A DNA stretch of 32,272 nucleotides from an uncultured virus (IMG/VR IMGVR_UViG_3300037843_000309) (lineage: Duplodnaviria > Heunggongvirae > Uroviricota > Caudoviricetes), in IMG/VR virus record IMGVR_UViG_3300037843_000309; one strand, given 5' to 3'. The position numbers were made by a program, and so were the translations under genes. The notes below the pieces were generated by a model, which saw only the letters and a list, made by a program, of their open reading frames with translations, was not told where the DNA came from and did not search any database. Below, one piece after another: positions 1,877 through 29,590 of the stretch. The first letter of the stretch is position 1, and each line of letters starts with the position of its first letter.

Positions 1877-2790
1877 AGCACATCTCATGGCTGGAAGCTG
1901 CGCGCGACGTTGACTGTATTGCCTGCCGGGTTAATGGGCGAAGCGGGGTCATGGTGCGGGAGTTCTCGAAACCCTCGCATCCATCCGAGTGCAGGGGCTG
2001 CACTGTCCCACTTGCGCCCGGGTGCAAATTCTGCCCCGAGTGCGGAACGAAGGTGTCCAATGAAAAACCGCCCATTACCGTGGAGTTTGTCTGCCAGGAT
2101 GGAGTCTGCGGCATCCGGAGAGGACCGTACATCGTGGACACTGAGGACTCACCTCCGGCGAATGGCGATGGGCCTGCGCCTGCATCTTCAAATCCGGTTG
2201 CTCCTACACCAGAAGAGGTTGCCAAGTTCTCGAAGCCTCCCGCCGAGCGAAAGTCGCGGTTAGCGGTGGACAAGCCCATCGAACCCATTGAACAGGATGA
2301 CCTCATCGCGTGGTGCAAGGAGAAATTTGCTCCCGCCTTCAAGATTCTGGATGAGGAATTCCCTCTGACCGTATCGCCAATTTCGCTCATAAATGACCCA
2401 AAACTGCCGCCCATCAAAGGCGTGAAGGTGGTCTACGGACACCAGGGGCCGCACCGCAAGGCGAACGAGTTGCAGGCGTTTATCCGCCTTGACGTGATCG
2501 AGGAAAAGTTCTGGTGCGAGGATGGCGAGCCCTCTCAGGAGCGTTTCGAGAAGGCGGAAGAGTCGCTCAAGGCACAAATCAAGAACGCGGTCCGAGGTGT
2601 GCCGACGGAGATTCACAAGGTCGTGCATCGGCCCACGGGCCCATCGAGTGTGCAGGTCTGTGGGGTGTGCGGGAATCGTAAACCCTGCGGGTGCGGCACG
2701 GAACTGAAAGCAAGCAACATGCTGGCGGAGCCGGTCAAGGGATCGGAAGCGCCAATACTGTCAGTAGCGGATTACATTAGGCAAAAGTAG
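1873..2790 (+). CDS. Multi zinc-ribbon (double zinc ribbon-like) protein
   Basis: ATGA overlap with the upstream stop gives start 1873, not 1669. CIAC, CRGC...CKFCPECG, CQDGVC and C-terminal CGVCG..CGC. Confidence 0.75.
   Translation: MKHISWLEAARDVDCIACRVNGRSGVMVREFSKPSHPSECRGCTVPLAPGCKFCPECGTKVSNEKPPITVEFVCQDGVCGIRRGPYIVDTEDSPPANGDGPAPASSNPVAPTPEEVAKFSKPPAERKSRLAVDKPIEPIEQDDLIAWCKEKFAPAFKILDEEFPLTVSPISLINDPKLPPIKGVKVVYGHQGPHRKANELQAFIRLDVIEEKFWCEDGEPSQERFEKAEESLKAQIKNAVRGVPTEIHKVVHRPTGPSSVQVCGVCGNRKPCGCGTELKASNMLAEPVKGSEAPILSVADYIRQK
1988..2004. repeat. Palindrome copy 1 (AGTGCAG-GGG-CTGCACT), inside CDS
   Basis: Exact arms; encodes C-R-G-C-T of a CxxC knuckle. Confidence 0.85.
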
Positions 2791-2882
2791 CACTCCAATG
2801 CGTCGGGAAAACTGAATAGCGGACCATCCGTTTCGGAAGATGAAAAATTCTTCCATCGAGGTCAACCCTAACATCGGGAGGG

Positions 2883-3680
2883 TTGGCCTCGTTCTTTTTG
2901 GTGCCTATGAGCAAACCAACTTACGGCGTAAAGCTAATCGACAACGTCCTCCACATCCTGCGGGAGAAGTCGATTCGCAACAACAACGCGCCCAACGAGC
3001 ATGAGGTCGCTATCGCCATCGACTACATTGGCGGCAAGAAGGCGAAGCTCATCATGCAGGAAACCGGGGAGTCGCTCGAAGGGATACTGGTCGCGCTCAA
3101 GCGCACTCGGGACGAGATTCGTCGCGGCAACGCGCCAGTGCAGGTCCTGCACCGCTTCCCCAAGCTGGTGGCATGGCAGGCGGAGAAGTTCCATCTGGAC
3201 GACCGCACGAATGGCCACGCGAAGCCCGAACCCGCGAAGCCCGACGACATCTTCACCACCCCGCCGGGCGAGATTGCGAAGCACAGTGCCGAGAATGCCC
3301 TGTCCCGGGCGGGAGTTAAAATCACCACAGAAGTCAGAAAGCAGATTCAGGAAATCTCGACGTTCAAGTACACCGACCCCGACCCCGAGGACCCGGAAAC
3401 CTTCAAGAAGTTTATGAGCGAAGTGCGCACTAATGTGATGCGGGTTGTCGCTCCGCTGGCTGGCCAGGTGCTTGCGGCGGAACTCGCCGGCGGCGGCGCC
3501 ATGACGACTGGCCTTGAAGTCGCCGGACTCCTGCCGAAGGGGAAGGGCCTCACCATCGCGCAGCAATTCAACATGGGCGGAGCGTCAGACGACAAGCACA
3601 AGCGCTTGCGCAGCGGGTTGGGATTTGAGCGATTACTCGACAAGGCCGACGCCGTCATCGACGCCGAAGTGGTAAAATGA
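2883..3680 (+). CDS. Putative terminase small subunit
   Basis: Directly upstream of TerL with an ATGA overlap; helical; C-terminal VIDAEVV tail typical of TerS-like proteins; SD GGGAGG before TTG. Assignment is mainly positional. Confidence 0.55.
   Translation: MASFFLVPMSKPTYGVKLIDNVLHILREKSIRNNNAPNEHEVAIAIDYIGGKKAKLIMQETGESLEGILVALKRTRDEIRRGNAPVQVLHRFPKLVAWQAEKFHLDDRTNGHAKPEPAKPDDIFTTPPGEIAKHSAENALSRAGVKITTEVRKQIQEISTFKYTDPDPEDPETFKKFMSEVRTNVMRVVAPLAGQVLAAELAGGGAMTTGLEVAGLLPKGKGLTIAQQFNMGGASDDKHKRLRSGLGFERLLDKADAVIDAEVVK
3136..3152. repeat. Palindrome copy 2 (CAGTGCAG-GTC-CTGCAC), inside CDS
   Basis: Exact GTGCAG/CTGCAC arms; encodes V-Q-V-L-H. Confidence 0.8.
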
Positions 3681-5917
3681 AGCAGGAAAAATACGCCCAA
3701 GAGTTGATCGAATATTTTGACAAGCTGCTTGTCCGCATCCTTGATGAGGACGAAGACGCCAACCCCTATGATGCCCTTACTACCGCAGAAGAGTCGATCA
3801 TCGTCGGAGAAATTGCACGCTGCAAGAAGGACTTTGTCTATGCGGCCGGAAACTATTTCTGGTTGAGCAAGACGAAGGATGCCAAGCGGAAGCTGGTTGA
3901 CATCGACGCAATGCCAGCACAAGAGATCCTTCTAAGTATCATTTTTGACTTTTGGAAGAAGGGGAAGCCTGCACGCATCCAGATTCACAAGGCCCGTCAA
4001 TTGGGAATTTCTTCAATATGTGAAGTATTGATGGCTTGGAAGATGTTGTTTTTTAAGGACCAGATCGGCATGATCGTGGCTCAAAATCCTAAGATTTCTG
4101 CTCGCATGCTTGAAATCACAACCTACATTTACGACCACGTTCCTTGGTGGATGCACCCGATGCCGGGAAATCGAGAGGTGAACGAACTGTTTGTTCTCGA
4201 CAACCCGGACGAGTCTGAGCGCCGTATAAATCCTGGCATGTCCAACTATCTTGTTGCTAACGCCTGCAATAAGATGTCAAGTTTCGGACAGGGAATGGCC
4301 CTTCACTGTGTTCACTTGACAGAGGTTTCGAGTTGGAGGCCAGAGGGAAGGGCGCGAGAAATAATCGATGGTGACCTCCTCTACGGGCTTCCCGATGAGC
4401 CAAATACATTCGCGATCATGGAGTCGAAACCCAAAGGGGTTGGTGGATACTGGTACGAGTTGTGGCAGGATAATGCAAAACAAGGCTTGCGTGCTCAGTT
4501 CTACCCGTTGTTCATTCCGTGCTTCGCTGAACACAATCGTCGGCTTCCGGCGCCAACCGACTTCACTCCGAACGAAGAAGAAACCGCCATGTCGGAGCGC
4601 TACTCGATCGAGTGGCATAAGTGCCGTAAGTGCGGGAAAATGGTTTCGACCGCCTACGTTGACTATCCGGTATGCTTGTTTTGTGGATGCTCGGATCACG
4701 ATCCGATCCCCCTCGACAACGACCAACTCTATTGGTATCGAGACAAAAAAGACGACGTAAAAAACGATCCAGAGCGGTACCGTCTATTCTTGCAAGAAAT
4801 GGCGGTAAATGCCGAGGAAGGATTCCAAGTTCACGGGATTCAGGTATTCCCCCAGGACGTCCGCAACTACCTTGAGAAGTCGGTGAACTGGCGCGGTAAG
4901 CGCGGGTACTTCGATGAGAACCTCCAATTCCACTGTACAGTGAAAAACCTCGATGGCAGCGTGTCGTGCCCATCCTGCACGCAGAATCACTCGGACGAGG
5001 ACTTCCCGTTGTTTGTGTGGGAGTTGCCGACACCCGGGAAGAATTACGTTTTCGGCATCGACGTGGCTGAAGGCGGTACGGAAGGCGACTGGTCGGTAAT
5101 CCATGCCATCCGGGTGGGCCACGGTTTCGAGCCCGATACACAGGTGCTTGAGTGGCGCGGCCAGGTTGACGCAGTCGAACTCTCTCGCGTCGTCTACCTT
5201 TTAGGGAAGGCCTACAACAACGCGCTCATCGCGATGGAAGTCGGCACGGCGTCAGGCGGCGGCGAATTGTGCCAGTGGGAGTTGACCGGGAAGCTGGGGT
5301 ACCAGAACATCTTCCGGTGGAAGAATTACGACTCAAAGAACCCTGTTTCCAACAAGTTCGGGTGGGTCACGAATGCGCGTACCCGTCCCATGCTCATTAC
5401 CAACGCCATCCGGTGGCTCCGCCAGAAGATTTGGAAGCCGCAGAGCCCTACGTTCCTTGATGAAGTACGGACGTTTGTGCGGGAAGAAGAAGAGGCGAAG
5501 GCGAAGGCGGTCAGCGGGACGTTCGACGATACCGTGATTGCCGGCATGATCTGCATCTTCTGTGCGCACGAATCGGACTTCGATCCGGGCACCGGGCGCA
5601 TCATGATGCCGACGAACCGGCTCCGCGGGGTCGAGGGGGGCGCGTCATTAAACTGGACTTGTACCTGCGAATGTGGTAACACATGGGACGTAGCGGACCC
5701 GCGCGGCGAGATTTGCCTCAAGTGCGGGAAGCCGGTCCTGAACGCCAAGCGCAAGGGAACGTGCTCATGCGGGAAGCTGGCGGAGCCGATGGGTCCGAAT
5801 TCCATGACCTGCAAAAAGTGCGGACTGCGCATGGTGTATACGAAACGCGAAACCGTCGATTTCAACGAGGTGAGGGTGGAAGAGAACGCCGAACTTCCGT
5901 CCTACGACTGCCTATGA
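3677..5917 (+). CDS. terL: Terminase large subunit with Zn-ribbon insertions
   Basis: Walker A-like HKARQLGIS, Walker B-like VHLTEVSSW, motif III MESKPKG; RNase H-like nuclease YVFGIDVAEG..DWS, ALIAME, FDDTVIA. Confidence 0.95.
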   Translation: MKQEKYAQELIEYFDKLLVRILDEDEDANPYDALTTAEESIIVGEIARCKKDFVYAAGNYFWLSKTKDAKRKLVDIDAMPAQEILLSIIFDFWKKGKPARIQIHKARQLGISSICEVLMAWKMLFFKDQIGMIVAQNPKISARMLEITTYIYDHVPWWMHPMPGNREVNELFVLDNPDESERRINPGMSNYLVANACNKMSSFGQGMALHCVHLTEVSSWRPEGRAREIIDGDLLYGLPDEPNTFAIMESKPKGVGGYWYELWQDNAKQGLRAQFYPLFIPCFAEHNRRLPAPTDFTPNEEETAMSERYSIEWHKCRKCGKMVSTAYVDYPVCLFCGCSDHDPIPLDNDQLYWYRDKKDDVKNDPERYRLFLQEMAVNAEEGFQVHGIQVFPQDVRNYLEKSVNWRGKRGYFDENLQFHCTVKNLDGSVSCPSCTQNHSDEDFPLFVWELPTPGKNYVFGIDVAEGGTEGDWSVIHAIRVGHGFEPDTQVLEWRGQVDAVELSRVVYLLGKAYNNALIAMEVGTASGGGELCQWELTGKLGYQNIFRWKNYDSKNPVSNKFGWVTNARTRPMLITNAIRWLRQKIWKPQSPTFLDEVRTFVREEEEAKAKAVSGTFDDTVIAGMICIFCAHESDFDPGTGRIMMPTNRLRGVEGGASLNWTCTCECGNTWDVADPRGEICLKCGKPVLNAKRKGTCSCGKLAEPMGPNSMTCKKCGLRMVYTKRETVDFNEVRVEENAELPSYDCL
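5297..5330 (+). repeat. 34-bp direct repeat, copy A (in terL)
   Basis: GGGTACCAGAACATCTTCCGGTGGAAGAATTACG, identical at 6497-6530. Confidence 0.95.
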
Positions 5918-6111
5918 GAATGGCGCTCTATCGAGCATACGATTTCGTTTTCCCGATATGGTTTGGGATTTCCCCGGACCCCTCCACTATGAACATTTTC
6001 GACCCACCTCGCCAGTTATGCCTTTTTGTGTGGCCTAAGCGCCTGTATCGGAACTTCCTTATTTGGTGGTTAAAGAGAAGGATGATAAGGTCAGTGCAGG
6101 GCCTGCACTGA
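5914..6111 (+). CDS. Small Trp/Phe-rich hypothetical protein ending inside the palindrome (...SVQGLH*)
   Basis: ATGA overlap with the terL stop; 65 aa; fills the gap exactly. Confidence 0.55.
   Translation: MRMALYRAYDFVFPIWFGISPDPSTMNIFDPPRQLCLFVWPKRLYRNFLIWWLKRRMIRSVQGLH
6091..6111. repeat. Palindrome copy 3 (TCAGTGCAG-GGC-CTGCACTGA)
   Basis: Perfect 9-bp arms; provides the TGA stop and runs into the SD GAGGAGG of the gene at 6122. Confidence 0.95.
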
Positions 6112-6121: not shown

Positions 6122-6865
6122 ATGCCACGACACGACGAGTCGCTTCCGATAAAAAACGATGTTCTCCCGTGGATCGAGAAAACTGTTTCCAAGAGGGGGG
6201 AAGACCTTGCTTCACCGTTGAATATATGGGAATTCCCAATCCTTGGAAGTCGGTACGTTTTGGGGGTTATTGTTGGAGAATCCCGCAAGGAAGATTCAGT
6301 GATCCATGCGATCCGCATCGACCGTGGGTTGAATCCTGATATACAGGTTTTCGAGTGGCGCGGCCAGATTGACGCGGTCAAGTTATCGAGAACGATTTAT
6401 TCTCTTGCCAAGTTCTACAATGAGGCATTGGTCGCGATTGAGGTTTCTGGAGCCTCTGGAACAGGAGAACTTTGCCAGTGGAATCTTTTGAAGCTCGGGT
6501 ACCAGAACATCTTCCGGTGGAAGAATTACGGGCCGATTGGTGATTGCTCGTCCTGTCGACACGCCCTAAACAGCCATGAACTTATGGACGATGGGGTCCA
6601 TCCTTGCAAAGTAAAAGGATGTAAGTGTAAGGCACTGAAGCAGAAGCAGGGGATGGCTGACCATTACGGGTGGATTACCAATGTCAGAACTCGGGATATG
6701 CTTATCGCCAATGCGAGGCGATGGTTAAATCAGCATCTTTGGTCTGTGAGGTCTCCCAAATTTCTGGAAGAAGCTAGAACTTGGAAAACCGATGAATCTA
6801 TTCGAGCGGGGATGATTGCCATTTTCTGCGCCCATGAAAGCGATTACGAGGAGAAGTCAGCGTAA
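6122..6865 (+). CDS. Stand-alone paralog of the TerL C-terminal nuclease domain, probably inactive
   Basis: Collinear with the TerL C-terminal half (VIHAIR, EWRGQ.DAV.LSR, GELCQW, LGYQNIFRWKNY, IFCAHESD). GIDVA becomes GVIVG and DDTV becomes DESI. Confidence 0.9.
   Translation: MPRHDESLPIKNDVLPWIEKTVSKRGEDLASPLNIWEFPILGSRYVLGVIVGESRKEDSVIHAIRIDRGLNPDIQVFEWRGQIDAVKLSRTIYSLAKFYNEALVAIEVSGASGTGELCQWNLLKLGYQNIFRWKNYGPIGDCSSCRHALNSHELMDDGVHPCKVKGCKCKALKQKQGMADHYGWITNVRTRDMLIANARRWLNQHLWSVRSPKFLEEARTWKTDESIRAGMIAIFCAHESDYEEKSA
6497..6530 (+). repeat. 34-bp direct repeat, copy B (in TerL paralog)
   Basis: Identical to 5297-5330, offset 1200 bp. Confidence 0.95.
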
Positions 6866-6876: not shown

Positions 6877-7527
6877 ATGTCAACAGCAACCTTGAATGAA
6901 GTGCGCGTGCACATCGATTCCGAAGACCTTCGGAAGGGGAAGAACCTGTACCGCGCTTCCAAAGACGAAGGCGAAATCATCGCGGGGATCGTCCACGAAT
7001 GGGTGGAAAATCAGGGGAAATTGTTCATCTCCCATCCCACGCTTCGCGAACTCGCCGCGCGCGCCGGGGTGCGCAACCCCATCCGAACCGAGGAAGACCT
7101 CATCAAGGTGTTCGAGTGCGTGACGAATCTCGGGAAGAACTCCTGCGTCGTCCACCTCGAAGCGGCGGAGATTCCTCAGATTGCCGCGAGCGCAGAGGGG
7201 CAGAAGATTCCCATGGGCGAAGCCATTGTCCAGTACTTGACGCACGCGATCGCCATGGGGTGGTTTTCCGAGCGCATCGAAGTGAAGAACATCATGTTCC
7301 AGCCGGCCGAGTTCAAAAACCTTGCGGCCATCCTGGGGGTTCCCGCCGTCCGCAGTTCCGAGCACCTCATCAAACTGATTATGGGCCTCAAGAAGCAATT
7401 GGGTGATGCCCGGGAGCAGGTGCGCGCGGCGAAAGAAGCGCAGGATGCGCTCGCGGTGCCGGTGGACGTGGCAGACGAACTTAGCGTAGATGTGACGGCG
7501 TCGGCTGGCGACCTGTCGCAAATCTAG
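6877..7527 (+). CDS. Hypothetical protein with internal duplication, tandem RHH-like units
   Basis: SD AAGGAG. LAARAGVRNPIRTEEDLIK resembles LAAILGVPAVRSSEHLIK; VRVHIDSED resembles CVVHLEAAE. Confidence 0.75.
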   Translation: MSTATLNEVRVHIDSEDLRKGKNLYRASKDEGEIIAGIVHEWVENQGKLFISHPTLRELAARAGVRNPIRTEEDLIKVFECVTNLGKNSCVVHLEAAEIPQIAASAEGQKIPMGEAIVQYLTHAIAMGWFSERIEVKNIMFQPAEFKNLAAILGVPAVRSSEHLIKLIMGLKKQLGDAREQVRAAKEAQDALAVPVDVADELSVDVTASAGDLSQI

Positions 7528-7542
7528 TGCAGGGCCTGCACT
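7526..7542. repeat. Palindrome copy 4 (AGTGCAG-GGC-CTGCACT)
   Basis: Overlaps the TAG stop at 7525-7527; followed by the SD GAGGAG of the gene at 7554. Confidence 0.95.
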
Positions 7543-7553: not shown

Positions 7554-8012
7554 GTGCCAATCTTTGAGTACGAGTGCCGCGCCTGCGGAAACACGATTGA
7601 GCGATACCACCCGTCGCTCAAGGCGTCTCCTGGATTCATGGTCTGCGGGGATGGCGCGAAAGAGCGCGGCGAGGTGCGGGGGTGCGGGGGGCCGATGCAG
7701 AAAATCATGTCCGTCCCCCACGTCGAAACCTTCAAGCCCTTCACCACCCGGAACATCGACCCAAGCGGCGCGGTGACGCATGTCACCTCTCGAAGCCAGC
7801 TTGAGATGCTGAAGCGCAAATTCGGTGTCCGCGAGGCGCGCGTGAACGGGATGTTTGGCGGCGACATGCGGAGCAACCCCATTAACCCGGAGCGGCCAAC
7901 CGGCCCCGTCAAGCCGAGGGCGAGAAAAGAAGCTGTGCGAATTACCCCGGATGAAGCGAAGGCGTTGCAGGCCCGGGCGGAGCATACCAACTTTGGGGCG
8001 AGGCGGGCATAA
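7554..8012 (+). CDS. FmdB-family (CxxC_CXXC_SSSS-like) zinc-ribbon protein
   Basis: Canonical start MPIFEYECRACG, then VC...RGCGG.MQKIMS. Confidence 0.85.
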   Translation: MPIFEYECRACGNTIERYHPSLKASPGFMVCGDGAKERGEVRGCGGPMQKIMSVPHVETFKPFTTRNIDPSGAVTHVTSRSQLEMLKRKFGVREARVNGMFGGDMRSNPINPERPTGPVKPRARKEAVRITPDEAKALQARAEHTNFGARRA

Positions 8013-9949
8013 TGGGAATCGCGGTGATGGCGTCCGGGGAACTCGACCAGGCAGAGAAATTTGCGAATCGAAGCGGAGCGCTTCCGCCACCCTTACTCAG
8101 GTACAAGTCCGACGAGCCTTTTTACCCGAAATACTACCTCGACAGCGCCTCCCGCTGGGCCGACACGGTCTACGAGGAATCCGTCAACCAACTTAGTTAC
8201 GACGAGGAAACGGCGCAAGCCACCCGCTACATCCAGTTAATCATGGGGAAGCAGTGGCCCGCCGAACGCCCCAATTACAAGTCGCGGCCCGTCATCAACA
8301 AAATCTCCAAATTCTTCTGGGAACTCGTCGCCTACCTCACCGACCTTCGCCTCAACATCGACGTTTCCACCGAAAACGACGAATACAAGAAGCTGACGGA
8401 GTTGTTCAAAAAGACCGTGCAGTGGAATTACCGTAACGAGCGCGGGACAATGGCGACCATCTTCGCCATCATGCACGCTTCTCTGGGCTCCGGATACATC
8501 AAGGTCTACCCGAACAACGTCAAAAACGACATCTGCTACCTCCCCTGCGGGCCCGACTCCGTCACGCCCATCATGGCGAATCCGATCGACCTCCAGCTTT
8601 CCGCCGGCATCATTCACCAGGCGTGGATGCCGCTGACGTGGTTTCAGGAGAAGTTCCCGAATTCTGGCCACTCCGTCCAGGCGGAAATGAGTTACGAAGG
8701 CGAATCGATGGGCGAGCGCCCGGGGTACGTACCCGAATACACTTGGAACGCTATCGCGCCAGGTCTCCGCAAGTTCCTCTATTCGGTGAGCCAACCTGAA
8801 ACCCGCGGCGGCGGGGGATGGGGAACAGGGAAGATGCCGGTCGCGCTCTACACCGAGTTCTGGTTTCGCGACCCTCAAATCAACACCTCGCGGCAGGACA
8901 TCAAGATTGGTTCGGGAAACTGGTCGTACACGGTTCTCCCGGGCGAGCGCATCTACCCGTGGGGGCGCCTGCTATGCACTGCGCAGAAAACCCGGCGCAA
9001 GCCGCTTTACGATGGCCCCAACTTCCACTGGCACGGCCAATTCCCCTTCGCGCTTCTACGCCTTCAACCCGTCCCCTGGATGTGGAGTGGAATATCAGAG
9101 TTCCGCGACCTCTGGCCCATCAACTCGTCACTCAACCAGGTGGTGGCCGACGGCCTCGACCTCCAAAAGCAATGCCTCAACCCCACCTTCGCGGTGAAGG
9201 ATGGCGCGATTGACGAAGCGACGTGGGCGAAGTACTTCCCAGGGATGCCCGGGCAGAAGATTCGCATGTTGTTGCGCAACGAAACCATCGACCAGCAGAT
9301 GAAGTGGATTTACCCCGACATGGGGATCCTTAACTCCGTCCCCCAGATGTACCAGTTGCTCAAGGGGGCGTTCGACGAGCAGAGCGGCATCATCGACATT
9401 GGCAAGCTGTCATCGAAAAAGCAGGTACCCTCGGAGTCCACCGTCGAGTCGATCCGCGAGTCGCAACAGGGGAAGTTCCGGGTGAAAGGGCTTTTCCTCG
9501 AACAGTTCATTGAGGACGTGGGGAGGCTGGCGCTCTCGGACATAATTCAGTTTTACACCCGCAAGCGCGTCATCCAGATGTTCGGATCGAAGGGGCTCGA
9601 ATGGGAGCACCTCGACTACGACCCCGACACTATTGTTCCCTACATCCAAAACCAAAAGGGAAGCGTTGATCCCTACTTCCGCGGGCGCGACTTCGTCAAA
9701 CAGTTTATTTTGAGTGTAGCCGCTGGCAGCGGGATGCCGGCGCAGCGTCGCGCCAACGCCGAAATCGCCATGGCGCTTCGCCGCGGGCGAGACATCGACC
9801 GCAAGAGCCTGATTCATGCCTTGCAGGAAGCCGGATACAACCTGCCGCCGGCAGAGGTCATCGACCTGCGGCTGCGGGAAGAATTTTCTCCACCCCCGCC
9901 GAAAAAGGGCGGGAAGGGTGCCGGGGCACAGGTACCGGCACCGGCGTAG
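8012..9949 (+). CDS. Portal protein (P22-like/podovirus type)
   Basis: 645 aa, between TerL and the capsid genes; motifs RPVINKI, GQFPF..LR..P.PW.WSG, INSSLNQ..D, FDEQSGI; low-complexity C-terminal tail. Confidence 0.85.
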   Translation: MGIAVMASGELDQAEKFANRSGALPPPLLRYKSDEPFYPKYYLDSASRWADTVYEESVNQLSYDEETAQATRYIQLIMGKQWPAERPNYKSRPVINKISKFFWELVAYLTDLRLNIDVSTENDEYKKLTELFKKTVQWNYRNERGTMATIFAIMHASLGSGYIKVYPNNVKNDICYLPCGPDSVTPIMANPIDLQLSAGIIHQAWMPLTWFQEKFPNSGHSVQAEMSYEGESMGERPGYVPEYTWNAIAPGLRKFLYSVSQPETRGGGGWGTGKMPVALYTEFWFRDPQINTSRQDIKIGSGNWSYTVLPGERIYPWGRLLCTAQKTRRKPLYDGPNFHWHGQFPFALLRLQPVPWMWSGISEFRDLWPINSSLNQVVADGLDLQKQCLNPTFAVKDGAIDEATWAKYFPGMPGQKIRMLLRNETIDQQMKWIYPDMGILNSVPQMYQLLKGAFDEQSGIIDIGKLSSKKQVPSESTVESIRESQQGKFRVKGLFLEQFIEDVGRLALSDIIQFYTRKRVIQMFGSKGLEWEHLDYDPDTIVPYIQNQKGSVDPYFRGRDFVKQFILSVAAGSGMPAQRRANAEIAMALRRGRDIDRKSLIHALQEAGYNLPPAEVIDLRLREEFSPPPPKKGGKGAGAQVPAPA

Positions 9950-9957: not shown

Positions 9958-10200
9958 ATGCGACGAACAACTGACAATCGGGAGTACGCGGTTTTAACCT
10001 ACTGTGGGCGGCGAATCGAGGTCCATCCCGACATTTTCAATGCCTGCTACTTTTTGCTCAACGATCCCGACAAGTCTGCCAAAATAGAAATCGGCGTGAT
10101 GAGCGGAAACATCTCAAACGTGCATATTAACGGCCTGAAAGCGAGTTCGCTGATGCCAGAACCTGCCATGAACGAGCCTCTCTACACCTTCACGAAGTAG
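9958..10200 (+). CDS. Hypothetical protein
   Basis: SD GGAGG; 80 aa; KIEIGVMSGNISNV loosely resembles a YezD/DUF2292-type beta-hairpin. Confidence 0.65.
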   Translation: MRRTTDNREYAVLTYCGRRIEVHPDIFNACYFLLNDPDKSAKIEIGVMSGNISNVHINGLKASSLMPEPAMNEPLYTFTK

Positions 10201-10208: not shown

Positions 10209-10227
10209 CAGTGCAGGACCTGCACTG
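10209..10227. repeat. Palindrome copy 5 (CAGTGCAG-GAC-CTGCACTG)
   Basis: Perfect 8-bp arms, 8 nt after a stop codon and 13 nt upstream of a TTGACT box. Confidence 0.95.
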
Positions 10228-10772: not shown

Positions 10773-11246
10773 ATGTGGAAACTCGGCAACACAACGCCAA
10801 CCCGGGAAGATTGGATCAAGATGGCGGTTTGGATTGACGCCGAGGGTTGCATTGAGGGTCTTCATTCTCGGACGGGGAAGCGAAGATGTCTTTCTCTTCG
10901 GGTGGCGGTGACGGTTTTTAATACCGACCCGAGAGTTTTCCTCTGGTGCCACAAGACGTTTGGTGGTGGCGGGAAGTCGATTGTCCGGAAAAGAAATTAT
11001 GGCCGTCCCTGCTATAACTGGCGGTGTTCTGGGCGATGCGCGAAGTGGATTTTGGAGAATTGCCTTGAGCACTTCTTGATTAAGCGTGAGCAGGCCGAGA
11101 TTGCTTTGGCTTTGTATGCGACGACCTTGCGACAGGGAGGGCAGAACGGCGCCCTGACACCTGAGTTAATATTTAAGCGCGAAGCGATGTTTTCCGCGTT
11201 GAAAAGTTTGAAACACCAACAGCACCAACCTCCAGTAATTCAGTAG
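10773..11246 (+). CDS. Free-standing single-motif LAGLIDADG homing endonuclease
   Basis: WIKMAVWIDAEGCI helix, then VTVFNTD, FGGG, YNW and HFLIKREQA, typical of the LAGLIDADG fold. Confidence 0.85.
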   Translation: MWKLGNTTPTREDWIKMAVWIDAEGCIEGLHSRTGKRRCLSLRVAVTVFNTDPRVFLWCHKTFGGGGKSIVRKRNYGRPCYNWRCSGRCAKWILENCLEHFLIKREQAEIALALYATTLRQGGQNGALTPELIFKREAMFSALKSLKHQQHQPPVIQ

Positions 11247-11431: not shown

Positions 11432-11779
11432 ATGCCGACACCGCATGGCAGCAAGATTATCATGGACAGCGCGACGATTGCGCCGAACGCCAAGGATCAC
11501 TCGGGTTTGGCGACCAGCCAGTTCAATGGCAAGGGTGGGCGCTCTGCCATCCACAACGAGATGGCGACTCCGACGCCGGAAAGCACCCTGAAGTCTGTGC
11601 CTCCGAGCCTTGCCGCATGGGCCGACACGCCCCCCAAGGGAGCGCATATCATGCCAGCGTCAACACATACCCCTGTTGTGCAAGACGGCGGCTTTGCTGA
11701 CTATGTTACCGGGAGCGGCTCGGCGAGCGAAATTGTGAAGTCTGGCAAATTTCCAAAGCCGGGATCCTGGGGTAAATAA
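11432..11779 (+). CDS. Hypothetical protein, paralog A (FNGKGGR..I.NEMAT motif)
   Basis: SD GAGGT; homologous to the next gene. Confidence 0.8.
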   Translation: MPTPHGSKIIMDSATIAPNAKDHSGLATSQFNGKGGRSAIHNEMATPTPESTLKSVPPSLAAWADTPPKGAHIMPASTHTPVVQDGGFADYVTGSGSASEIVKSGKFPKPGSWGK

Positions 11780-12084
11780 TGGCGTCGAAGCAGACAGGCC
11801 GCGTCGTGATGGATGGAGCTACGGTTCCTCCGTGCGACAAGTCGATTTCCCCCATCGCCGCCACGTATTTCAATGGTAAGGGTGGCCGCCGGGGAATTTG
11901 CAACGAGATGGCGACCCTGCCTTCCCAAAAAGACCTTGGTCCAGTTCCGAGCGGCGAGGACATGAATTACGAAATCACCAATCGCAAGGGAGTGGTGGTA
12001 AGTCCAATCGCTGCAATATCTCCAACACCTTCTTTCGCTGATGGTACGACAAGGCCCGGTAAGCAGCCGGGGCCGTGGGAATAA
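11779..12084 (+). CDS. Hypothetical protein, paralog B
   Basis: TAATG overlap; shares MD.AT..P, FNGKGGR..I.NEMAT, FAD and PG.W with 11432-11779. Confidence 0.8.
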   Translation: MASKQTGRVVMDGATVPPCDKSISPIAATYFNGKGGRRGICNEMATLPSQKDLGPVPSGEDMNYEITNRKGVVVSPIAAISPTPSFADGTTRPGKQPGPWE

Positions 12085-12644: not shown

Positions 12645-12661
12645 CAGTGCAGGACATGCAC
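12645..12661. repeat. Palindrome copy 6 (CAGTGCAG-GAC-aTGCAC)
   Basis: One core mismatch; directly after the TAA at 12641-12643. Confidence 0.85.
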
Positions 12662-12767
12662 CAATCAGAAGCGCAAGTGGTTAGCGGAAGCGTAGAGCGG
12701 TACTGGAACCCCGTTCGCGGGGAAGGTCACCGTTCCGTGGGCCGACTATCCATGGAGGCGAACTGAC

Positions 12768-13685
12768 ATGGGAAACCCATTCACCAGTCTTTTGAACGAT
12801 TTAAGTAACCCGGCTGACAAGGAAATTTTGACCAAACTCAGTCCGGAAGGGCAAGAATTCCTTTCCGGCGCCGCCATGCGGCAGTCGGACTTCTCCCGCA
12901 AGAACGACGAATACGTCCGCCTGAAGACCGCAGCTTCCACCTGGGAACCGTGGCAGGCCGGACAGCGACCGGAGTGGGAACGGCGCTATAAAGAATTCCC
13001 AACAGTCGAAGCAAAGGCGCGAGAACTGGAACAGAAATACGTGACCGCGCAAGCCGAAATTGACGCACTCAAAGCGGCCTCACCCAATGCCGATGGGTCC
13101 ATCGACATCTCGAAACTCTCTCAATCGACGGTAGACCTGCTGCAAAGCAAGTTGAAACCGCAACTTGAAGGTTTCGTGACGAAGGCGGATCTCAAGACGG
13201 CCATGGAAGAGGTTGCGAAAACTGCCTGGACCCGGACCGCAGAGGACCTTCTGCCGGTGGCGATGCAGGCTCAGGAACTCTCGCAGCGGTATTACCGGGA
13301 GTTTGGCGAGCCCATGTCCCACGAAACCATCATCAAGGTGGCAGCCGAAAGCGGACGGAAGGGTCAGGAGTCACTCGATTTCGCCTGGCAGAAGCTTGCG
13401 GGCCCGAAGTTGGAAGCGAAGCGCCAAGCCGACATCGACCAAAAGATCAAAGAAGCCGAAGAACGCGGGGTTCAGAAGGGATTGCGCGAGGCGCAAACCC
13501 ACAACAACCTCCCTCCGGGGATGGAAGAAGGGGCTCCCGGGTTCCAGTTCGCGAAGCCCGTGGAGTCGATTGACCAGCTTCCCCCCGATTACGAGCTTGG
13601 CCAGAAGGGCGGGTTCATGCTCGGTCAACTCGCCGGAGACGAATTAAGGAAATTGGGCGCCCAGCGCTCACAGCAAGGGACTTGA
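12768..13685 (+). CDS. Capsid scaffolding protein
   Basis: SD GGAGG; charged coiled-coil protein immediately before the capsid gene; RQSDFSRK motif of the DY.RK type. Confidence 0.75.
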   Translation: MGNPFTSLLNDLSNPADKEILTKLSPEGQEFLSGAAMRQSDFSRKNDEYVRLKTAASTWEPWQAGQRPEWERRYKEFPTVEAKARELEQKYVTAQAEIDALKAASPNADGSIDISKLSQSTVDLLQSKLKPQLEGFVTKADLKTAMEEVAKTAWTRTAEDLLPVAMQAQELSQRYYREFGEPMSHETIIKVAAESGRKGQESLDFAWQKLAGPKLEAKRQADIDQKIKEAEERGVQKGLREAQTHNNLPPGMEEGAPGFQFAKPVESIDQLPPDYELGQKGGFMLGQLAGDELRKLGAQRSQQGT

Positions 13686-13729: not shown

Positions 13730-14725
13730 ATGCTTGCACTGACTGATATTAACAGCGTTACGCAGCGCATGATCGTCCCGAAGGCCTACGACGTGGTGTT
13801 CAAGTACAGCCCCATGTTTGTGCGCCTCCGGACCCGGCATGCAGTGCAGTTTACCGGCGGCACGTCCATCGACACGCCCATCATCTACCAGAAGCTGAAA
13901 GGTGGACCGTTCACCCGCGGCCAGGGCCTCAACATCGACTACGTGAACACGGACACCGCGTTCAGCGTCAAGCCGAAGTTCTACTATGTCTCCGTCGTGC
14001 TGTTCGGGACGGACGGTATTCTGAACCGCGGCGAGAATGCGGCCATGTCGCTGGTGGAATTGAAACTGGCAAACGCCGCCGCGGCCATGGGCGAGAACCT
14101 GTCGATCGATATGTACCTCGACGGCCTCTCAACCACCGCTGTCAACACGAACCTGGGAGCCAACTCGACCACCGCGTCGCTCGACGGCTTCGCCCAGTGG
14201 ATTGATGACGGCACCAACGTCACGACCGTTGGCAGCATCACCCGCACCGACCTGAGCGCGGCCGGAACCGTTGGAGGCGGGAACGCCTACTTCAAGTCGT
14301 TCGCGAGCACCCCCATCGCCACCACCGACCTCAACACCGCCTTCGGTAAGGCGTGGTTTGGTCCCGACCGTCCCGACCTGCTGTCGGCAACCCCCGACGT
14401 CTGGAACTACGTCGTCGCGAAGTTGCAGCCGGCCCAGCGCTTCGACCGCCCCGACACCGACGTGGTCAAGGCGGGGTTCCAAGCGATCCAGTACATGGGC
14501 GCCGACTTCGTGGTCGACAACTACTGCCCCGCGAGCTCGCTGTGGGGCTTCAACACGAAGTACATCCAGTTCTACATGACAACCAATCGGTTATTTCAAT
14601 TTGGGTTTACAGGTTTCAAAGATGACCAAGGCACTGTAGACTACGCCGGCCAGTATCTTTTCGGCGGAAACATTGTAGTCGCGAACCCTCGGACCTGTTT
14701 CCAGTTGGTTCTGATCTCCGGTTAA
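13730..14725 (+). CDS. Major capsid protein (HK97 fold)
   Basis: 331 aa after the scaffold; GG..I..PI.Y, Y.DG, LDGF...I, VGSITR, GF..I.Y.GA..V.D..CP and C-terminal G......NPR; strongly C/G-ending codons. Confidence 0.9.
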   Translation: MLALTDINSVTQRMIVPKAYDVVFKYSPMFVRLRTRHAVQFTGGTSIDTPIIYQKLKGGPFTRGQGLNIDYVNTDTAFSVKPKFYYVSVVLFGTDGILNRGENAAMSLVELKLANAAAAMGENLSIDMYLDGLSTTAVNTNLGANSTTASLDGFAQWIDDGTNVTTVGSITRTDLSAAGTVGGGNAYFKSFASTPIATTDLNTAFGKAWFGPDRPDLLSATPDVWNYVVAKLQPAQRFDRPDTDVVKAGFQAIQYMGADFVVDNYCPASSLWGFNTKYIQFYMTTNRLFQFGFTGFKDDQGTVDYAGQYLFGGNIVVANPRTCFQLVLISG

Positions 14726-14744
14726 TAGCCGGGAGTGAGTTTAG

Positions 14745-14764
14745 GGGCGGCGGAAACGCCGCCC
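14745..14764 (+). other. GC-rich GAAA-tetraloop hairpin after the capsid gene
   Basis: GGGCGGCG-GAAA-CGCCGCCC with no U-tract, so more likely an mRNA stabiliser or pause site than a terminator. Confidence 0.6.
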
Positions 14765-14772
14765 GAGTAATC

Positions 14773-14791
14773 CAGTGCAGCACCTGCACTG
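14773..14791. repeat. Palindrome copy 7 (CAGTGCAG-CAC-CTGCACTG)
   Basis: Perfect 8-bp arms, intergenic. Confidence 0.95.
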
Positions 14792-15482: not shown

Positions 15483-15689
15483 TTGCCGGCGGTCGTGTCA
15501 AGCTACCTCGCCGCTCTGGAGTGGAAGGAGGGCGAGGGGCTAAATGCGCAGTTCAAGAACGGAAGGGTAGCGAACTACCCCGACGTTCCCGAAGAGGTCT
15601 ATCTTTCCGTGATTGGCTCGGCGTCGGTCGGAAGCGCCTTTGACAGCCAGGTGAAGAAGGCGGGGTACGCCTTCACCTATATCGCATAG
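15483..15689 (+). CDS. KTSC domain protein
   Basis: SS.L....W....L..QFKNG....Y.DVP..VY......S.GS.F...VK..Y is the KTSC signature; SD AGGAGG. Confidence 0.9.
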   Translation: MPAVVSSYLAALEWKEGEGLNAQFKNGRVANYPDVPEEVYLSVIGSASVGSAFDSQVKKAGYAFTYIA

Positions 15690-15700: not shown

Positions 15701-16153
15701 ATGGCATTAAAAATAACGGCGGTGCAGGGTCCGAACGGAGCATACGCGAATCTGGGTGACCTCAACGGGAGACTCTATTTGATCACCGGAGACACCTCCT
15801 ATCCCAATGGCGGAACCGAACCCACCAGTGGATATACGGTGAAGGGCAATATCGCCCTTGGCACGATCCTCTACGGGCATGCAAATCCGGCCTCAAACAA
15901 TGCCATGGGAGTCGAGTGCAAGTTCAGGCCCGATACGGGCAGAGTCCATTTCTTCTACCCAACTGGTGGAACGACCGGAAACGCAAACGTGGGTGGAAGC
16001 CCGCTGGTAACCCCTGGCAGCGCGACGAACAACAGTAATAACAGCACCCTTGGTGGGAACAACGCCACCCTGACCGGCGGTCCCGGGATTGAAATTCCGA
16101 ACGGCGCAAATTGCGTGAGTTTGAGTTACCAGGTGCTGTTCATCGGATACTAA
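15701..16153 (+). CDS. Putative virion structural protein
   Basis: SD GGGAG; GDTSYPNGG..Y motif; Gly/Asn/Thr-rich; C-terminal V.FIGY. Confidence 0.65.
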   Translation: MALKITAVQGPNGAYANLGDLNGRLYLITGDTSYPNGGTEPTSGYTVKGNIALGTILYGHANPASNNAMGVECKFRPDTGRVHFFYPTGGTTGNANVGGSPLVTPGSATNNSNNSTLGGNNATLTGGPGIEIPNGANCVSLSYQVLFIGY

Positions 16154-16155: not shown

Positions 16156-16174
16156 CAGTGCAGGACATGCACTG
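16156..16174. repeat. Palindrome copy 8 (CAGTGCAG-GAC-aTGCACTG), followed by a T7 tract
   Basis: Directly after a TAA stop; ACTTTTTTT at 16175-16183 may let it double as a terminator. Confidence 0.9.
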
Positions 16175-20538: not shown

Positions 20539-22179
20539 ATGAAGAAACTTCTCTTGGCGGTTGCGGTGCTGATTCTCAGTGCAGGCCCTGCACTGGGGCA
20601 GTATATTCCGGTGAGCGGCTATGTTTCCCAAGGTGGAACAACGGTCACCGTGGGGGGCTTGCCTCCAACCGTTGCCACCTACCTAAAAACATTCCCCGGG
20701 GCTACCGTGACGGTCTACGCGACGGGAACCTCCAATCTCGTATCAATTTATTCAAATTCCAGTGGTAGCGCCAAAGCCAATCCTTTTACCTCTGACTCTG
20801 TGACTTCGCTATGGATTTTTTGGGTAGCTCCAGGAATCTATGATATTCGTTTTTCCGGAACTGGGATAACTGTTCCGTGGACGGTCAGTACTGGAGTCCA
20901 AGTTACAGGGATTGGCAATAGCACGACTGTCATCGACGCATCCTTGGTATTTGGCGCAACATGGGGAGACCGGGTCATAGCAGCAGCAGCGGCAGGAACA
21001 TGCCCAACAGTCGGCTGTACCATAGATACCCGAGGCTTAACAGGTGTCCAGGTAATCCCATCCTTGATTACCCTCCCACCTTCCACGCATCTGATTCTTG
21101 GCGATGCTCAGATTCAATGCCTTACAATTCCTTGTATCAGCTATACCCACTCTGACATCATCGAGGGCCAAGGGGGACTCTCTCTTAGCGCAGCGTGTCC
21201 CCAAGGAAGCATTATATGGGGTAACGTCACGTCGCCAGCGGGTGCGATGATAACGCCAGTTTCTGGAGCTTACCAAGTCAACATGCACGACTTCGCACTC
21301 GTCGATTCCGGCAACGCCTGTGCTTCCGTAAGCGGGAATACTACTCATATCGGTATCGACTTCAGCCAAGTCCTAAACTCACAATTCCGCAACATCAACT
21401 TCGTGGGATTTGACAAGGGCCTTTACGCGAACCATGTAGGCGGATGTGACTGCTACAATCATATCGAGAATGTAAATTTTCTCGCGTTGAATCAGGATGG
21501 ATTGTATTTAGGAGCAGACGCTAACTGGAATGTGGTGCTGAACGTCCAGAGCAATTTCGTTCCCGCAAAATCCAACGTAGTTCACCTTGACGGTGCTACC
21601 GGGAATGACATTGTAGGGGTCAAATGCGAAAATGGCGACGTGACGGCCCTATGCGTGAACGTTACTTCTATATCCGGCACGAGCGCTGACAACAATATCT
21701 TAGGGATTGTCTCCGCTACCGGGTTTGCTACGCCTCAGTGGAGTGACACGTCGGGGAGCGTTGCCAGTTTCGGGATAGGAAACACAATTCAGGTCAGCAA
21801 CCGATTTGTGGAAGTGAACGGCAGATTTACCACGGGCGACGAAGGCATTACCGCCTCGGTGAACAACATCAACCTTGGGCCTTTATCGTCCTCCATCGGC
21901 ACAACGACGCTCTACACCGACCCGGTAGGTGGCAACTCCAGCAGCTACATCATCAACTACACCTTGTACGCAACCACTGGAAGTACGGGCAACGTCCAGG
22001 CCACCTTCACCTGGGGGAACGGGTTTTATAACCAAGTCTGCACTTCTCCGGTGCTGAACATCACGACTAACAACGGCTTTGAAGGAACGCGCGCTGTGTC
22101 GGGTGGCACAATCCAGTACAGCACGACCTACGTGGCCTCTGGGAATTATTATCTCTATGCGACGGTGACAAAACAATGA
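20539..22179 (+). CDS. Tailspike-like beta-helix protein with signal peptide
   Basis: Signal MKKLLLAVAVLILSAGPALG|Q; virion-attachment-type N-domain (GATVTVYATGT....IY.......NPF..D); pectate-lyase-like N/I/G repeats; beta-sandwich C-domain. Confidence 0.75.
   Translation: MKKLLLAVAVLILSAGPALGQYIPVSGYVSQGGTTVTVGGLPPTVATYLKTFPGATVTVYATGTSNLVSIYSNSSGSAKANPFTSDSVTSLWIFWVAPGIYDIRFSGTGITVPWTVSTGVQVTGIGNSTTVIDASLVFGATWGDRVIAAAAAGTCPTVGCTIDTRGLTGVQVIPSLITLPPSTHLILGDAQIQCLTIPCISYTHSDIIEGQGGLSLSAACPQGSIIWGNVTSPAGAMITPVSGAYQVNMHDFALVDSGNACASVSGNTTHIGIDFSQVLNSQFRNINFVGFDKGLYANHVGGCDCYNHIENVNFLALNQDGLYLGADANWNVVLNVQSNFVPAKSNVVHLDGATGNDIVGVKCENGDVTALCVNVTSISGTSADNNILGIVSATGFATPQWSDTSGSVASFGIGNTIQVSNRFVEVNGRFTTGDEGITASVNNINLGPLSSSIGTTTLYTDPVGGNSSSYIINYTLYATTGSTGNVQATFTWGNGFYNQVCTSPVLNITTNNGFEGTRAVSGGTIQYSTTYVASGNYYLYATVTKQ
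20575..20595. repeat. Palindrome copy 9, inverted relative to copies 3/4/10/11, inside the signal-peptide codons
   Basis: CTCAGTGCAG-GCC-CTGCACTG; its reverse complement contains AGTGCAGGGCCTGCACTGAG exactly; encodes L-S-A-G-P-A-L. Confidence 0.95.
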
Positions 22180-26843: not shown

Positions 26844-26881
26844 GGGGCGCGGATCTCATCGGGAAACCGCGCCCTGTTTTT
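26844..26881 (+). terminator. Intrinsic terminator
   Basis: GGGCGCGG (26845-26852) pairs with CCGCGCCC (26867-26874), followed by TGTTTTT. Confidence 0.7.
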
Positions 26882-26886: not shown

Positions 26887-26903
26887 AGTGCAGGGCCTGC
26901 ACT
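26887..26903. repeat. Palindrome copy 10 (AGTGCAG-GGC-CTGCACT)
   Basis: Directly after the terminator; followed by the GAGGA SD of the gene at 26916. Confidence 0.95.
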
Positions 26904-26915
26904 GAGGAATAAAGA

Positions 26916-27338
26916 ATGTGGACATTTGAAATCCAAACTGGAAGGATTTTCGATCCGACAGGAACGCTGGCGGGTACGGGCTACGCCGGCGGAAACCTTG
27001 GCAAGGTTCCCGAAGCGGTCAACAACCCCGACTATGTTAAAGTTCACAACACCGGCCCGCTGCCTCCAGGTGATTACGACATGGTCGAACTGGTGGCCCA
27101 ATCGCATTTGGGTCCCAACGCGATTCGCCTCGAACCTCGACCGGAAAACGAGATGTTTGGGCGCGCGGGGTTCTACATCCATCCAGACCTGATTGATGCC
27201 GCGCAGCACCCACAGAGCGCGAGCGAGGGATGCATTGTTTATACTCAGAGGATGCAAATGTGGAATTCTTCCGACCATGGGTTGCACGTCGTCCCTTTCT
27301 CGGAGCTTTTGACCCCGATGGATATCACTGGGTCTTAG
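26916..27338 (+). CDS. DUF2778/Tlde1-like L,D-transpeptidase-fold enzyme, putative endolysin
   Basis: MW.F...TG, GYAG, NNP...V.N.GPLPPG.Y, L.P, GR.GFYIH-x16-C ending SASEGCI. Confidence 0.85.
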   Translation: MWTFEIQTGRIFDPTGTLAGTGYAGGNLGKVPEAVNNPDYVKVHNTGPLPPGDYDMVELVAQSHLGPNAIRLEPRPENEMFGRAGFYIHPDLIDAAQHPQSASEGCIVYTQRMQMWNSSDHGLHVVPFSELLTPMDITGS

Positions 27339-27347
27339 GAGGGTGAG

Positions 27348-27521: not shown

Positions 27522-27524
27522 AAA

Positions 27525-28265: not shown

Positions 28266-28272
28266 GAGGAAT

Positions 28273-28425: not shown

Positions 28426-28428
28426 AGA

Positions 28429-29139: not shown

Positions 29140-29357
29140 TGGCAGACGAAAAAGTCCAACTTGGAACCCCCACCGACGCTATCGTCGAGGCGATGGAAAA
29201 GGTTTCCGACATGGAGGGGGTGCTTATCATCTGGCAGAGGCCAGAAGGAGGTATTTCCTGTACGTCAAACGGAGAAATGACCGTCCAGCAAGCAATCTAT
29301 CTTGCCGAAGCGTTCAAATACGAAATGCTCGCAAGGGTTTTCGGAGACAGGGATTAG
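29136..29357 (+). CDS. Hypothetical protein
   Basis: Overlaps the upstream stop; SD GGAGG; 73 aa. Confidence 0.65.
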   Translation: MMADEKVQLGTPTDAIVEAMEKVSDMEGVLIIWQRPEGGISCTSNGEMTVQQAIYLAEAFKYEMLARVFGDRD

Positions 29358-29368
29358 GGAGGGAATCT

Positions 29369-29590
29369 ATGCGATTGAGAGTTTTGGACATCAACACTCC
29401 GTGGTTCTGGCTGACGGTTTTCTGGCAACGTTTATATGGCAAACCTTGGCTGGAAATGTCGATTTGGAGTCCAAATACCCACCGAAGCTGGTGGTTTTAT
29501 GCGTTTCAGTGGGAAAAATATGCAGAGGGAGGGGGCGGATATGGCTTGGAATCGCCTTCCGATGAAAAGCTAGTGCAGGGCCTGCACTGA
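29369..29590 (+). CDS. Small Trp-rich hypothetical protein ending inside the palindrome (...LVQGLH*)
   Basis: SD GGAGG before ATG 29369; 73 aa; the TGA stop is supplied by the palindrome. Confidence 0.6.
   Translation: MRLRVLDINTPWFWLTVFWQRLYGKPWLEMSIWSPNTHRSWWFYAFQWEKYAEGGGGYGLESPSDEKLVQGLH
29572..29588. repeat. Palindrome copy 11 (AGTGCAG-GGC-CTGCACT)
   Basis: Exact copy; continues TGA-G-ATG into the next gene. Confidence 0.95.

Follow-up and report, generated by a model that had tools for sequence, protein, structure and literature searches.

What reads a palindrome that recurs at one gene junction after another in a phage genome, and is it read as double-stranded DNA or as a hairpin? 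The question is raised by IMGVR_UViG_3300037843_000309, an uncultured virus of the Caudoviricetes, of which we analysed a stretch of 32,272 nt (hereafter the window). The phage, from peat, is new and podovirus-like, with a genome of about 100 kb; the window covers only about one third of that genome and constitutes its late module. It carries eleven dispersed copies of the palindrome AGTGCAG-N3-CTGCACT. The original prediction, made from the sequence alone, had counted nine perfect and two one-mismatch copies, and exact and mismatch scans bear this out: the perfect core GTGCAG-NNN-CTGCAC occurs nine times (core starts 1989, 3138, 6094, 7527, 10211, 14775, 20579, 26888 and 29573), and two further cores, at 12647 and 16158, each read GTGCAGGACATGCAC. 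In 100 dinucleotide-preserving shuffles the perfect core had a mean count of 0.00 and a maximum of 0; if up to two mismatches are allowed, the window has 15 matches against 1.71 expected. The positions first given for the copies refer to the 17-mer AGTGCAG..CTGCACT and are displaced by 0 to 3 bases. The array is a real feature, and one of a kind known from other phages. Its copies are as follows; ORF denotes an open reading frame.

1988..2004, copy 1: AGTGCAG-GGG-CTGCACT, within ORF 1669-2790
3137..3153, copy 2: core GTGCAG-GTC-CTGCAC, next base C instead of T; within ORF 2883-3680, slightly 5' of the large terminase gene
6093..6109, copy 3: centre GGC; intergenic, with the terminase stop 176 nt before; followed by TGAGGAGG and an ATG at 6122
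7526..7542, copy 4: centre GGC; core base 1 is the final stop-codon base of ORF 6877-7527; GTG start at 7554, 12 nt downstream
10210..10226, copy 5: centre GAC; 10 nt past the stop of ORF 9958-10200; opens the longest non-coding stretch and, with an upstream A-run, is terminator-like on the minus strand
12646..12662, copy 6: one-mismatch form GTGCAG-GAC-ATGCAC; followed by a conserved 105-nt leader and the gene at 12768
14774..14790, copy 7: centre CAC; 49 nt past the stop of the major capsid gene; ATG at 14817, 27 nt downstream
16157..16173, copy 8: one-mismatch form; 4 nt past the stop of ORF 15701-16153; GTG at 16202, 29 nt downstream; with a T-run, the sole copy scored as terminator-like on the + strand
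20578..20594, copy 9: centre GCC; codons 14-19 (S-A-G-P-A-L) of ORF 20539-22179, which has a signal-peptide-like N-terminus
26887..26903, copy 10: centre GGC; past a terminator-like hairpin with T-run; ATG at 26916, 13 nt downstream
29572..29588, copy 11: centre GGC; ATG at 29592, 4 nt downstream, opens the gene of a large late protein

The copies are spread evenly, 1.1-6.3 kb apart, at a density of about one per 3 kb. The base 5' of the core is A in all eleven and the base 3' of it is T in nine. As predicted, no compensatory change is found among the window copies, and the 3' extension TGA(G/C) is present in seven of the eleven, all seven being among the eight intergenic copies. The spacers vary as had been listed but are not free, as G-N-C occupies the 3-nt spacer in 9 of 11 copies (P about 3e-4); with G..C at positions 7/7', the symmetry of the palindrome extends to within one base of the centre.

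Eight of the eleven copies fall within the 6.7% of the window that is non-coding by our own gene calls (P = 5e-8, binomial), which upholds the claim that eight copies sit at gene junctions; the three others, with cores at 1989, 3138 and 20579, are intragenic. Six of the eight intergenic copies have a start codon 4-29 nt downstream, mostly with a GGAGG-like word. G+C-rich hairpins lie directly 5' of copy 7 (14740-14765) and copy 10 (26845-26880, with a T-run), so terminator-like structures adjoin motif copies. At the junction of copy 6, the closest relative, L003, has GTGCAT-GAC-CTGCAC and the relative L011 a degenerate remnant of the motif. The non-coding leader that follows there (12662-12767, about 105 nt), before the gene at 12768 which itself precedes the capsid gene, is conserved in both L003 and L011; it contains a CCCCG..CGGGG hairpin and long invariant runs, and could be an RNA element or a promoter region.

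We found that the motif belongs to phages and not to a host chromosome. A scan with AGTGCAGGNCCTGCACT of one genome per species, covering 185,579 prokaryote species, yielded 79 single-copy stretches, from scattered taxa, and an array in no genome; the one genome that was matched twice has the motif within repeated coding sequence. Two metagenome-assembled genomes (MAGs) of Acidobacteriota have two copies each, the same as in a reversed-pattern control. Among 301 Terriglobia genomes (two of these, G092 and G123, are unpublished, and no result depends on them), 198 have at least one copy with a 2- or 3-nt spacer, but the counts are mostly 0-3 and similar to the control. The sole outlier is the Terriglobia MAG G098, with 14 copies against one in the control, and it stands out because of one contig, of 41 kb, which has six copies within 12 kb.

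Relatives of the phage were surveyed at 80 metagenome loci and 80 IMG/VR loci around relatives of its capsid protein, and the exact motif with a 3-nt spacer occurs in none of these 80 + 80 loci. Relatives at 55-59% capsid identity have the same arms with a 2-nt spacer: there are 14 such copies in G004 (69.5 kb) and 17 in G013, which overlaps G004 and has seven of its copies past the G004 end, whereas the reversed-pattern control gives 0 in each. Both structural regions and those for replication and regulation (DnaB, RecT, methylases) contain such copies. The motif is thus not specific to the late operon, and the proposal that it silences the late operon, or organises or packages the genome, finds no support. 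A further relative, G006, combines 2-nt-spacer copies with three copies of GTGCAT-TTA-CTGCAC, and G012, at 38% capsid identity, has nine copies of GTGCAA-N1-2-TTGCAC, that is, a symmetric change at arm position 6 and two spacer lengths.

Other capsid relatives have palindromes of their own. Two are spacer-less and span 12 bp and 18 bp (TCCAGTACTGGA, seven copies; CACTCCTATATAGGAGTG, six copies, the sixth with one mismatch, CACTCCTATATGGGAGTG); others are GTCCGCC-N-GGCGGAC in G422 (eight copies, one of them the variant GTCCGCTCAGCGGAC), GTCCGA-NN-TCGGAC (five copies) and CACTTT-N5-AAAGTG (five copies). These differing palindromes indicate that palindromes at gene junctions are a recurring trait of the family, with a lineage-specific sequence. 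At the loci of many relatives, those of the complete records G009 and G010 among them, no palindrome reaches three copies. Even L004 and L011, at 92-93% capsid identity, have a different gene and a different palindrome directly after the capsid gene. The original prediction had regarded relatives that keep pairing but not sequence as evidence against a protein site. At the level of the family this pattern does occur, in the form of the other palindromes; within each genome, however, the arms are invariant, and the family pattern therefore looks more like co-evolving pairs of protein and site than like RNA conserved for structure only. Taken by themselves, G419, G421, G422, G418 and G420 (loci L385-L400) each have a genome-specific palindrome in 5-8 perfect or near-perfect copies, two of these being spacer-less.

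The same arms also occur in unrelated elements. A scan of IMG/VR with AGTGCAGNNCTGCACT gave 110 stretches, 80 of them listed; elements with arrays of the arms are given here, the first three with whole-record counts.

G016: 81.8-kb provirus with a tyrosine integrase, siphovirus-like and temperate; 10 copies, all within 29.9-40.6 kb
G017: relative of G016; 10 copies
G015: 131 kb, 71% G+C; 6 perfect copies, and 13 sites if arm position 6 is left free
G098:C24: contig in the Terriglobia MAG; motif array with 2-nt and 3-nt spacers

The capsid family of the window was found in none of the five unrelated motif-bearing records (0/5), and G015, G016 and G017 share almost no proteins with the window family; the reversed-pattern control is 0 in both G016 and G017. 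In the unrelated elements the motif lies within runs of small genes, past one stop codon and 15-35 nt ahead of the next start; in G016 two tandem copies 20 bp apart, an operator-like pair, head an early-operon run of such genes. In G015, at 62-83 kb (L359), the arms lengthen to about 10 bp (CCGA..TCGG).

G016 and G017 allow selection to be measured. Nine sites are orthologous between the two, and differences are found at 1 of 108 arm positions, as against 9 of 21 positions in the centres and 83 of 360 in the 20-nt flanks (P = 1e-9 by Fisher's exact test). Purifying selection acts strongly on both arms and leaves the centre free. The near-invariance of the arms, with centre and flanks drifting, points to recognition of both arms by sequence; gene conversion among the copies is ruled out as the cause, because it would have homogenised the centre too. 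Arms that are identical among copies with varying centres are likewise seen in the window, G004, G013, G016 and G017. What is new here is that an arm sequence is common to phages with unrelated structural genes, that a one-base variation in arm spacing is tolerated, and that selection on the arms has been measured.

We propose that a single putative regulator, sequence-specific and dyad-symmetric, binds the copies as double-stranded DNA, and give this reading a probability of roughly one half. One protein species, as a dimer or tetramer and most likely encoded by the phage, would dock at all the sites, most of which occupy the very short gap that separates a stop codon from the following ribosome-binding site (RBS). 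Its binding would act on transcription, either as a roadblock or occluder, like that at the conserved inverted repeats (CIRs) of phiC31 and the stoperators of L5, or as a timing device. The sites retain symmetry at positions where a hairpin cannot pair, namely G..C at 7/7' in the window, 6/6' in the sites with a 2-nt spacer, and the spacer-less palindromes. The flanks do not covary: flank position 1 pairs in 46 of 84 sites against a permutation mean of 47.7, positions 2-6 behave alike, and in G015 the corresponding figures are 25 of 36 against 23.0 expected. Symmetry at unpairable positions, flanks without covariation and a free centre together favour a double-stranded dyad site. The free centre would be like that of operators whose middle bases are not contacted.

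A candidate for the binder is encoded near the left end of the window.

793..993, + strand: candidate regulator, an Arc/Mnt-type ribbon-helix-helix (RHH) protein of 66 aa, beta-strand QMTLRYP

This protein aligns with small proteins of the motif-bearing G004, G016 and G017, and a profile built from these same four proteins (A4: window, G004, G016 and G017) matches Mnt (E = 5e-6) and Arc (8e-4) in a search of PDB sequences. At E up to 1, the profile finds no protein in three complete motif-less relatives or in five relatives with other palindromes, and the Pfam Arc family agrees. The densest cluster of sites in G004, three in 2.4 kb, encloses its Arc-like gene as well as the one XRE-type gene found there. 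Mnt binds as a tetramer to a 17-bp dyad operator with one central base, and the motif's AGTGCAGG-N-CCTGCACT has the layout of this P22 operator; P22 Arc and Mnt have one operator each, whereas the motif here forms a genome-wide set. The protein 793-993 may be the binder, and of the two RHH candidates originally named it is truly of the Arc/Mnt type, but the other, 6877-7527, gives no DNA-binding signal.

Two further small proteins were considered as binders and rejected. The KTSC-domain protein 15483-15689 also occurs in G016, but it is present in G009 and G011, which lack the motif, and so does not track it. The other, of 94 aa, has a zinc ribbon at its N-terminus and is RHH-like by eye at its C-terminus; it is found in the otherwise unrelated G013 (L361:9173-9457) and G098:C24 (L382:6945-7229), with 52% identity between them and motif copies flanking both; as a general binder it was set aside, being common to these two elements only. 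Pfam and PHROGs annotation shows no regulator among the genes beside the arrays in G015 and G016.

Several observations weigh against one dimer at double-stranded sites. Spacers of 2 and 3 nt coexist in G006, G016, G017 and G098:C24 (1 and 2 nt in G012), and the orthologous sites of G016 and G017 keep their own spacer length, which indicates that both spacer forms are selected; a rigid dimer should not tolerate such mixed spacing. The sites also have a direction. All eight intergenic sites of the window have a coding-strand purine as central base (P = 0.008), seven of them continue as TGA(G/C), and in G015 six of the 13 sites read GTGCAA-NN-CTGCAC in the sense orientation while the mirror form never occurs. 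As RNA, the window copies are predicted to fold at -6 to -13 kcal/mol. No protein common to all motif-bearing lineages was found by all-against-all BLASTP and phmmer, and the Arc-like protein was not found in the motif-bearing G015, G006, G012 and C24. The protein 793-993 is a weak lead, because its profile was self-built, it is only 22% identical to the other Arc-like proteins, no motif copy adjoins any Arc-like gene, and RHH proteins are common in phages. The preference originally expressed for a dimeric-protein site over an RNA hairpin is sustained by the invariant arms, the central symmetry, the intergenic bias and an anatomy shared with phiC31 and Cluster O, and challenged by the mixed spacers and the strand polarity.

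The same observations that trouble a rigid dimer come naturally to a hairpin, formed in mRNA or in transiently single-stranded DNA, in which a protein reads a 5-bp GUGCA/UGCAC stem and ignores the loop, so as to control the processing, stability or translation of the cistron starting just downstream. We regard this, the main rival, as possible, if on the unlikely side. The gap between the invariant 5-bp arms is 3 to 5 nt, even within one genome, as is natural for a loop; the sites stand on the sense side directly 5' of an RBS, for genes on either strand; and the share of sites with an RBS-like word and a start codon within 60 nt is 6 of 11 for the window, 13 of 15 for G004 and 9 of 13 for G015, compared with about 30% for random positions. 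The strand polarity of the central base and the 3' flank, and the predicted folding, fit as well. Yet pairs 1-5 show no compensatory change in 84 sites, although the scan demanded GTGCA/TGCAC there and variants could not be counted, and the lack of site-by-site covariation in the flanks and the symmetry at unpairable positions (7/7', 6/6', and the spacer-less 12-bp and 18-bp palindromes) are not what a hairpin would require. G.U pairs are not enriched among single mismatches (roughly 3-4 of 19 against 1 in 6, by a hand tally of a small sample), known hairpin binders usually read the loop, which is free here, and three of the eleven window copies are intragenic. No RNA-binding candidate was found, and Rfam 15 at the gathering score gives 0 matches in the window. 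CsrA-type GGA loops were also considered, but are present in some copies only and were dropped.

Elements with unrelated virion genes have GTGCA-N3-5-TGCAC: podovirus-like phages of 100 kb, the temperate provirus of siphovirus type, the high-G+C element and the contig of the Terriglobia MAG. Tentatively, and with odds that we consider rather low, this may be one recognition module that puts up with 1-bp shifts in arm spacing, and reflect either a portable system, in which a regulator and its site move together between phages, with cross-regulation or cross-immunity as the result, or a hairpin read by a loop-ignoring factor. Loop-ignoring readout of a hairpin in RNA or single-stranded DNA at gene junctions would, if true, be a mode not described for phages.

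That the same arms occur in elements with no common capsid gene and almost no common proteins (the window family, G016/G017, G015 and G098:C24) could also mean that the protein docking on double-stranded DNA at these sites comes from the host, for instance as a global regulator or nucleoid protein of the host group, and that different phages sharing those hosts each recruited it on their own. The lack of a phage protein common to all motif-bearing elements would then be expected; moreover, one element lies in a Terriglobia MAG, and one capsid relative of the window is named as Terriglobia by its source. We find this doubtful. Close and distant relatives of the window have different palindromes, or none, at comparable junctions, most of the 301 Terriglobia genomes are at the control level with G098 alone standing out, and G016 DNA was not found in 401 Terriglobia genomes (12 kb searched; chance-sized matches only). 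The G+C content of G015, 71% against 56-60% in the others, makes a common host group doubtful in itself.

It is improbable that the copies are junction or linker sequences for recombination between copies, serving module exchange or deletion, with no regulatory role. The sites do bracket gene blocks, the close relatives L004 and L011 have another gene and another palindrome right after the capsid gene, and deletions between copies of the Cluster O repeat are reported (PMC4351075). However, homologous exchange would have a mere 14-17 bp to act on, the motif has no recombinase that tracks it, and a free centre between invariant arms, with the purifying selection seen in G016/G017, would be left unexplained.

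Still less probable is that the copies are promoters for a phage polymerase or sigma factor, possibly hairpins of the type used by the N4 virion RNA polymerase. The position of sites 4-30 nt before starts would suit promoters, and the window has no excess of sigma-70-like promoters over chance (4 vs 6.3; 7 vs 7.8). The early promoters of N4, with a stem of 5-7 bp and a 3-nt loop, bear a resemblance to the motif. Against this, sigma-70 region 2 gave no match in five related records (three of them complete) while the control was positive in 10 of 14 genomes, a siphovirus-like provirus carries the motif too, the copy at 29573 is merely 4 nt from its ATG, and three copies are intragenic. T7-type polymerase (PF00940) was found in 0 of 5 related records, with the control genomes equally silent. 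To our knowledge, none of the sigma-54 promoter, the LexA box and the CIRCE box fits the motif.

We can virtually dismiss the reading of the motif as a host element of the repetitive extragenic palindromic (REP) type with its cognate RAYT, which the original prediction had named as a possible refutation, or as plain intrinsic terminators: it is a short palindrome at gene ends, and the copy at 16158 is followed by a T-run, but this is the only one of the eleven that is terminator-like on the coding strand, the 79 single-copy stretches among the species genomes include no array, the Acidobacteriota MAGs are no richer than the control, and there is no Pfam match to a Y1 transposase (RAYT) among 40 window proteins.

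The wider gene content of the window is summarised below; all the confident genes are on the + strand.

3677-5917, + strand: large terminase (Pfam and PHROGs), 746 aa, no intein domain
8012-9949, + strand: portal (Pfam and PHROGs)
13730-14725, + strand: major capsid protein (Pfam and PHROGs)
from 27525 and from 28429, + strand: two SU10-type adaptor proteins (Pfam and PHROGs)
3-707 and 10773-11246: LAGLIDADG-like ORF and HNH endonuclease gene (Pfam and PHROGs)

The terminase, portal, capsid and adaptor genes mark the phage as podovirus-like and the window as its late module. With E up to 0.001, 246 relatives of the capsid protein were found, many of them on contigs of about 100 kb, and one is labelled by its source as coming from a Terriglobia MAG. 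No named phage was matched at the DNA level by megablast of 6 kb against 50,697 phage records, and exact-peptide scans of IMG/VR with the capsid and portal proteins gave no match. The stretch occurs only in peat metagenome runs (four), with no RNA run among these, and the metagenome contigs that match the window are of the same strain only, with no variant at any motif copy. Two contigs of run X1, of 31.9 and 27.3 kb, reach past the window. A contig of run X1 joins the sequence just past copy 7 (14795) to the start of copy 9 (20577), with 21 letters on the short side; we read this as assembly ambiguity caused by the repeat rather than as a real deletion.

Further features of the genes were noted in passing. 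The large terminase of the relative G004 (L243:5692-9099) has 1135 aa and contains a Hint (intein) domain, which that of the window lacks. The adjacent small genes 11432-11779 and 11779-12084 encode clearly similar proteins and are apparent tandem paralogues. Four consecutive late proteins (gene starts 19981, 20539, 22176 and 22738) have signal-peptide-like hydrophobic N-termini, which is unusual for virion proteins. The protein 26916-27338, directly 3' of motif copy 10, has a Tlde1 domain (Pfam, E = 1.5e-12) and, judged from this domain, may be a cell-wall-acting enzyme.

How does the array compare with known systems? The suggested analogy with matS or parS finds no support, as neither ParB nor MatP is matched by the proteins of the window or G004, and the sites are evenly spread and not gathered in one domain. 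The L5 analogy holds in part. The stoperators of L5 and Cluster A are asymmetric 13-bp sites in one orientation to transcription, bound by a monomeric helix-turn-helix repressor which blocks transcription. The motif resembles them in its many intergenic copies across early and late operons, but it is a palindrome, with polarity only in the flank and the central base, and membership of the L5 class thus fails on the defining feature. A full-text literature search with the arm sequences gave nothing relevant, and one for phage intergenic palindromes in general gave nothing specific.

Similar in anatomy is phiC31, whose c repressor binds the CIRs, as known from the literature of the 1990s, and in a lysogen holds the lytic genes off. 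The phiC31 record has 15 copies of TACTCACGTGAGTA in stop-to-RBS gaps of the early and late regions, some beside terminator-like hairpins, and these perfect palindromes share the anatomy of the window copies; unlike the motif here, they vary neither in the centre nor in the length of a spacer. BLASTP with the c repressor against the ORFs of the window, G004, G013, G006, G015, G016, G017 and L223 found no relative (best E = 1.9). As for lifestyle, phiC31 is temperate; G016 has an integrase, whereas searches of G004 and G013 found none.

A close likeness is also seen to the Cluster O mycobacteriophages, such as Corndog, described by Cresawn et al. 2015 (PMC4351075). As described there, these phages have more than 30 copies of TGTTCGG-NNN-CCGAACA, a 17-bp dyad with invariant arms and a variable centre of slight orientation preference; many copies are intergenic or near gene 5' ends and some are intragenic, and the repeat is absent from host genomes and from all other mycobacteriophages. 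The authors propose dimeric regulatory proteins and leave the function open (PMC4351075). Judged by that account, the window motif agrees with the Cluster O repeat in its 7-bp invariant arms, 3-bp gap, variable centre and bias towards intergenic positions and 5' ends; the arm layout, the many spread intergenic copies and the lack of a host-chromosome repeat are all found here. It differs in sequence, phage family and host, in that its arms are common to unrelated phages, and in a spacer of 2 or 3 nt (1-2 in G012).

Shared arms, if they stand for a shared regulator, could let phages of the same habitat repress one another's genes or set their timing. The mixed 2-nt and 3-nt spacers, together with the 66-aa candidate, provide a usable handle for telling DNA-level from hairpin-level recognition. 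Genome-wide dyad repeats at gene junctions recur in phages, in Cluster O, in phiC31 and in L5, and the array of the window stands beside them.

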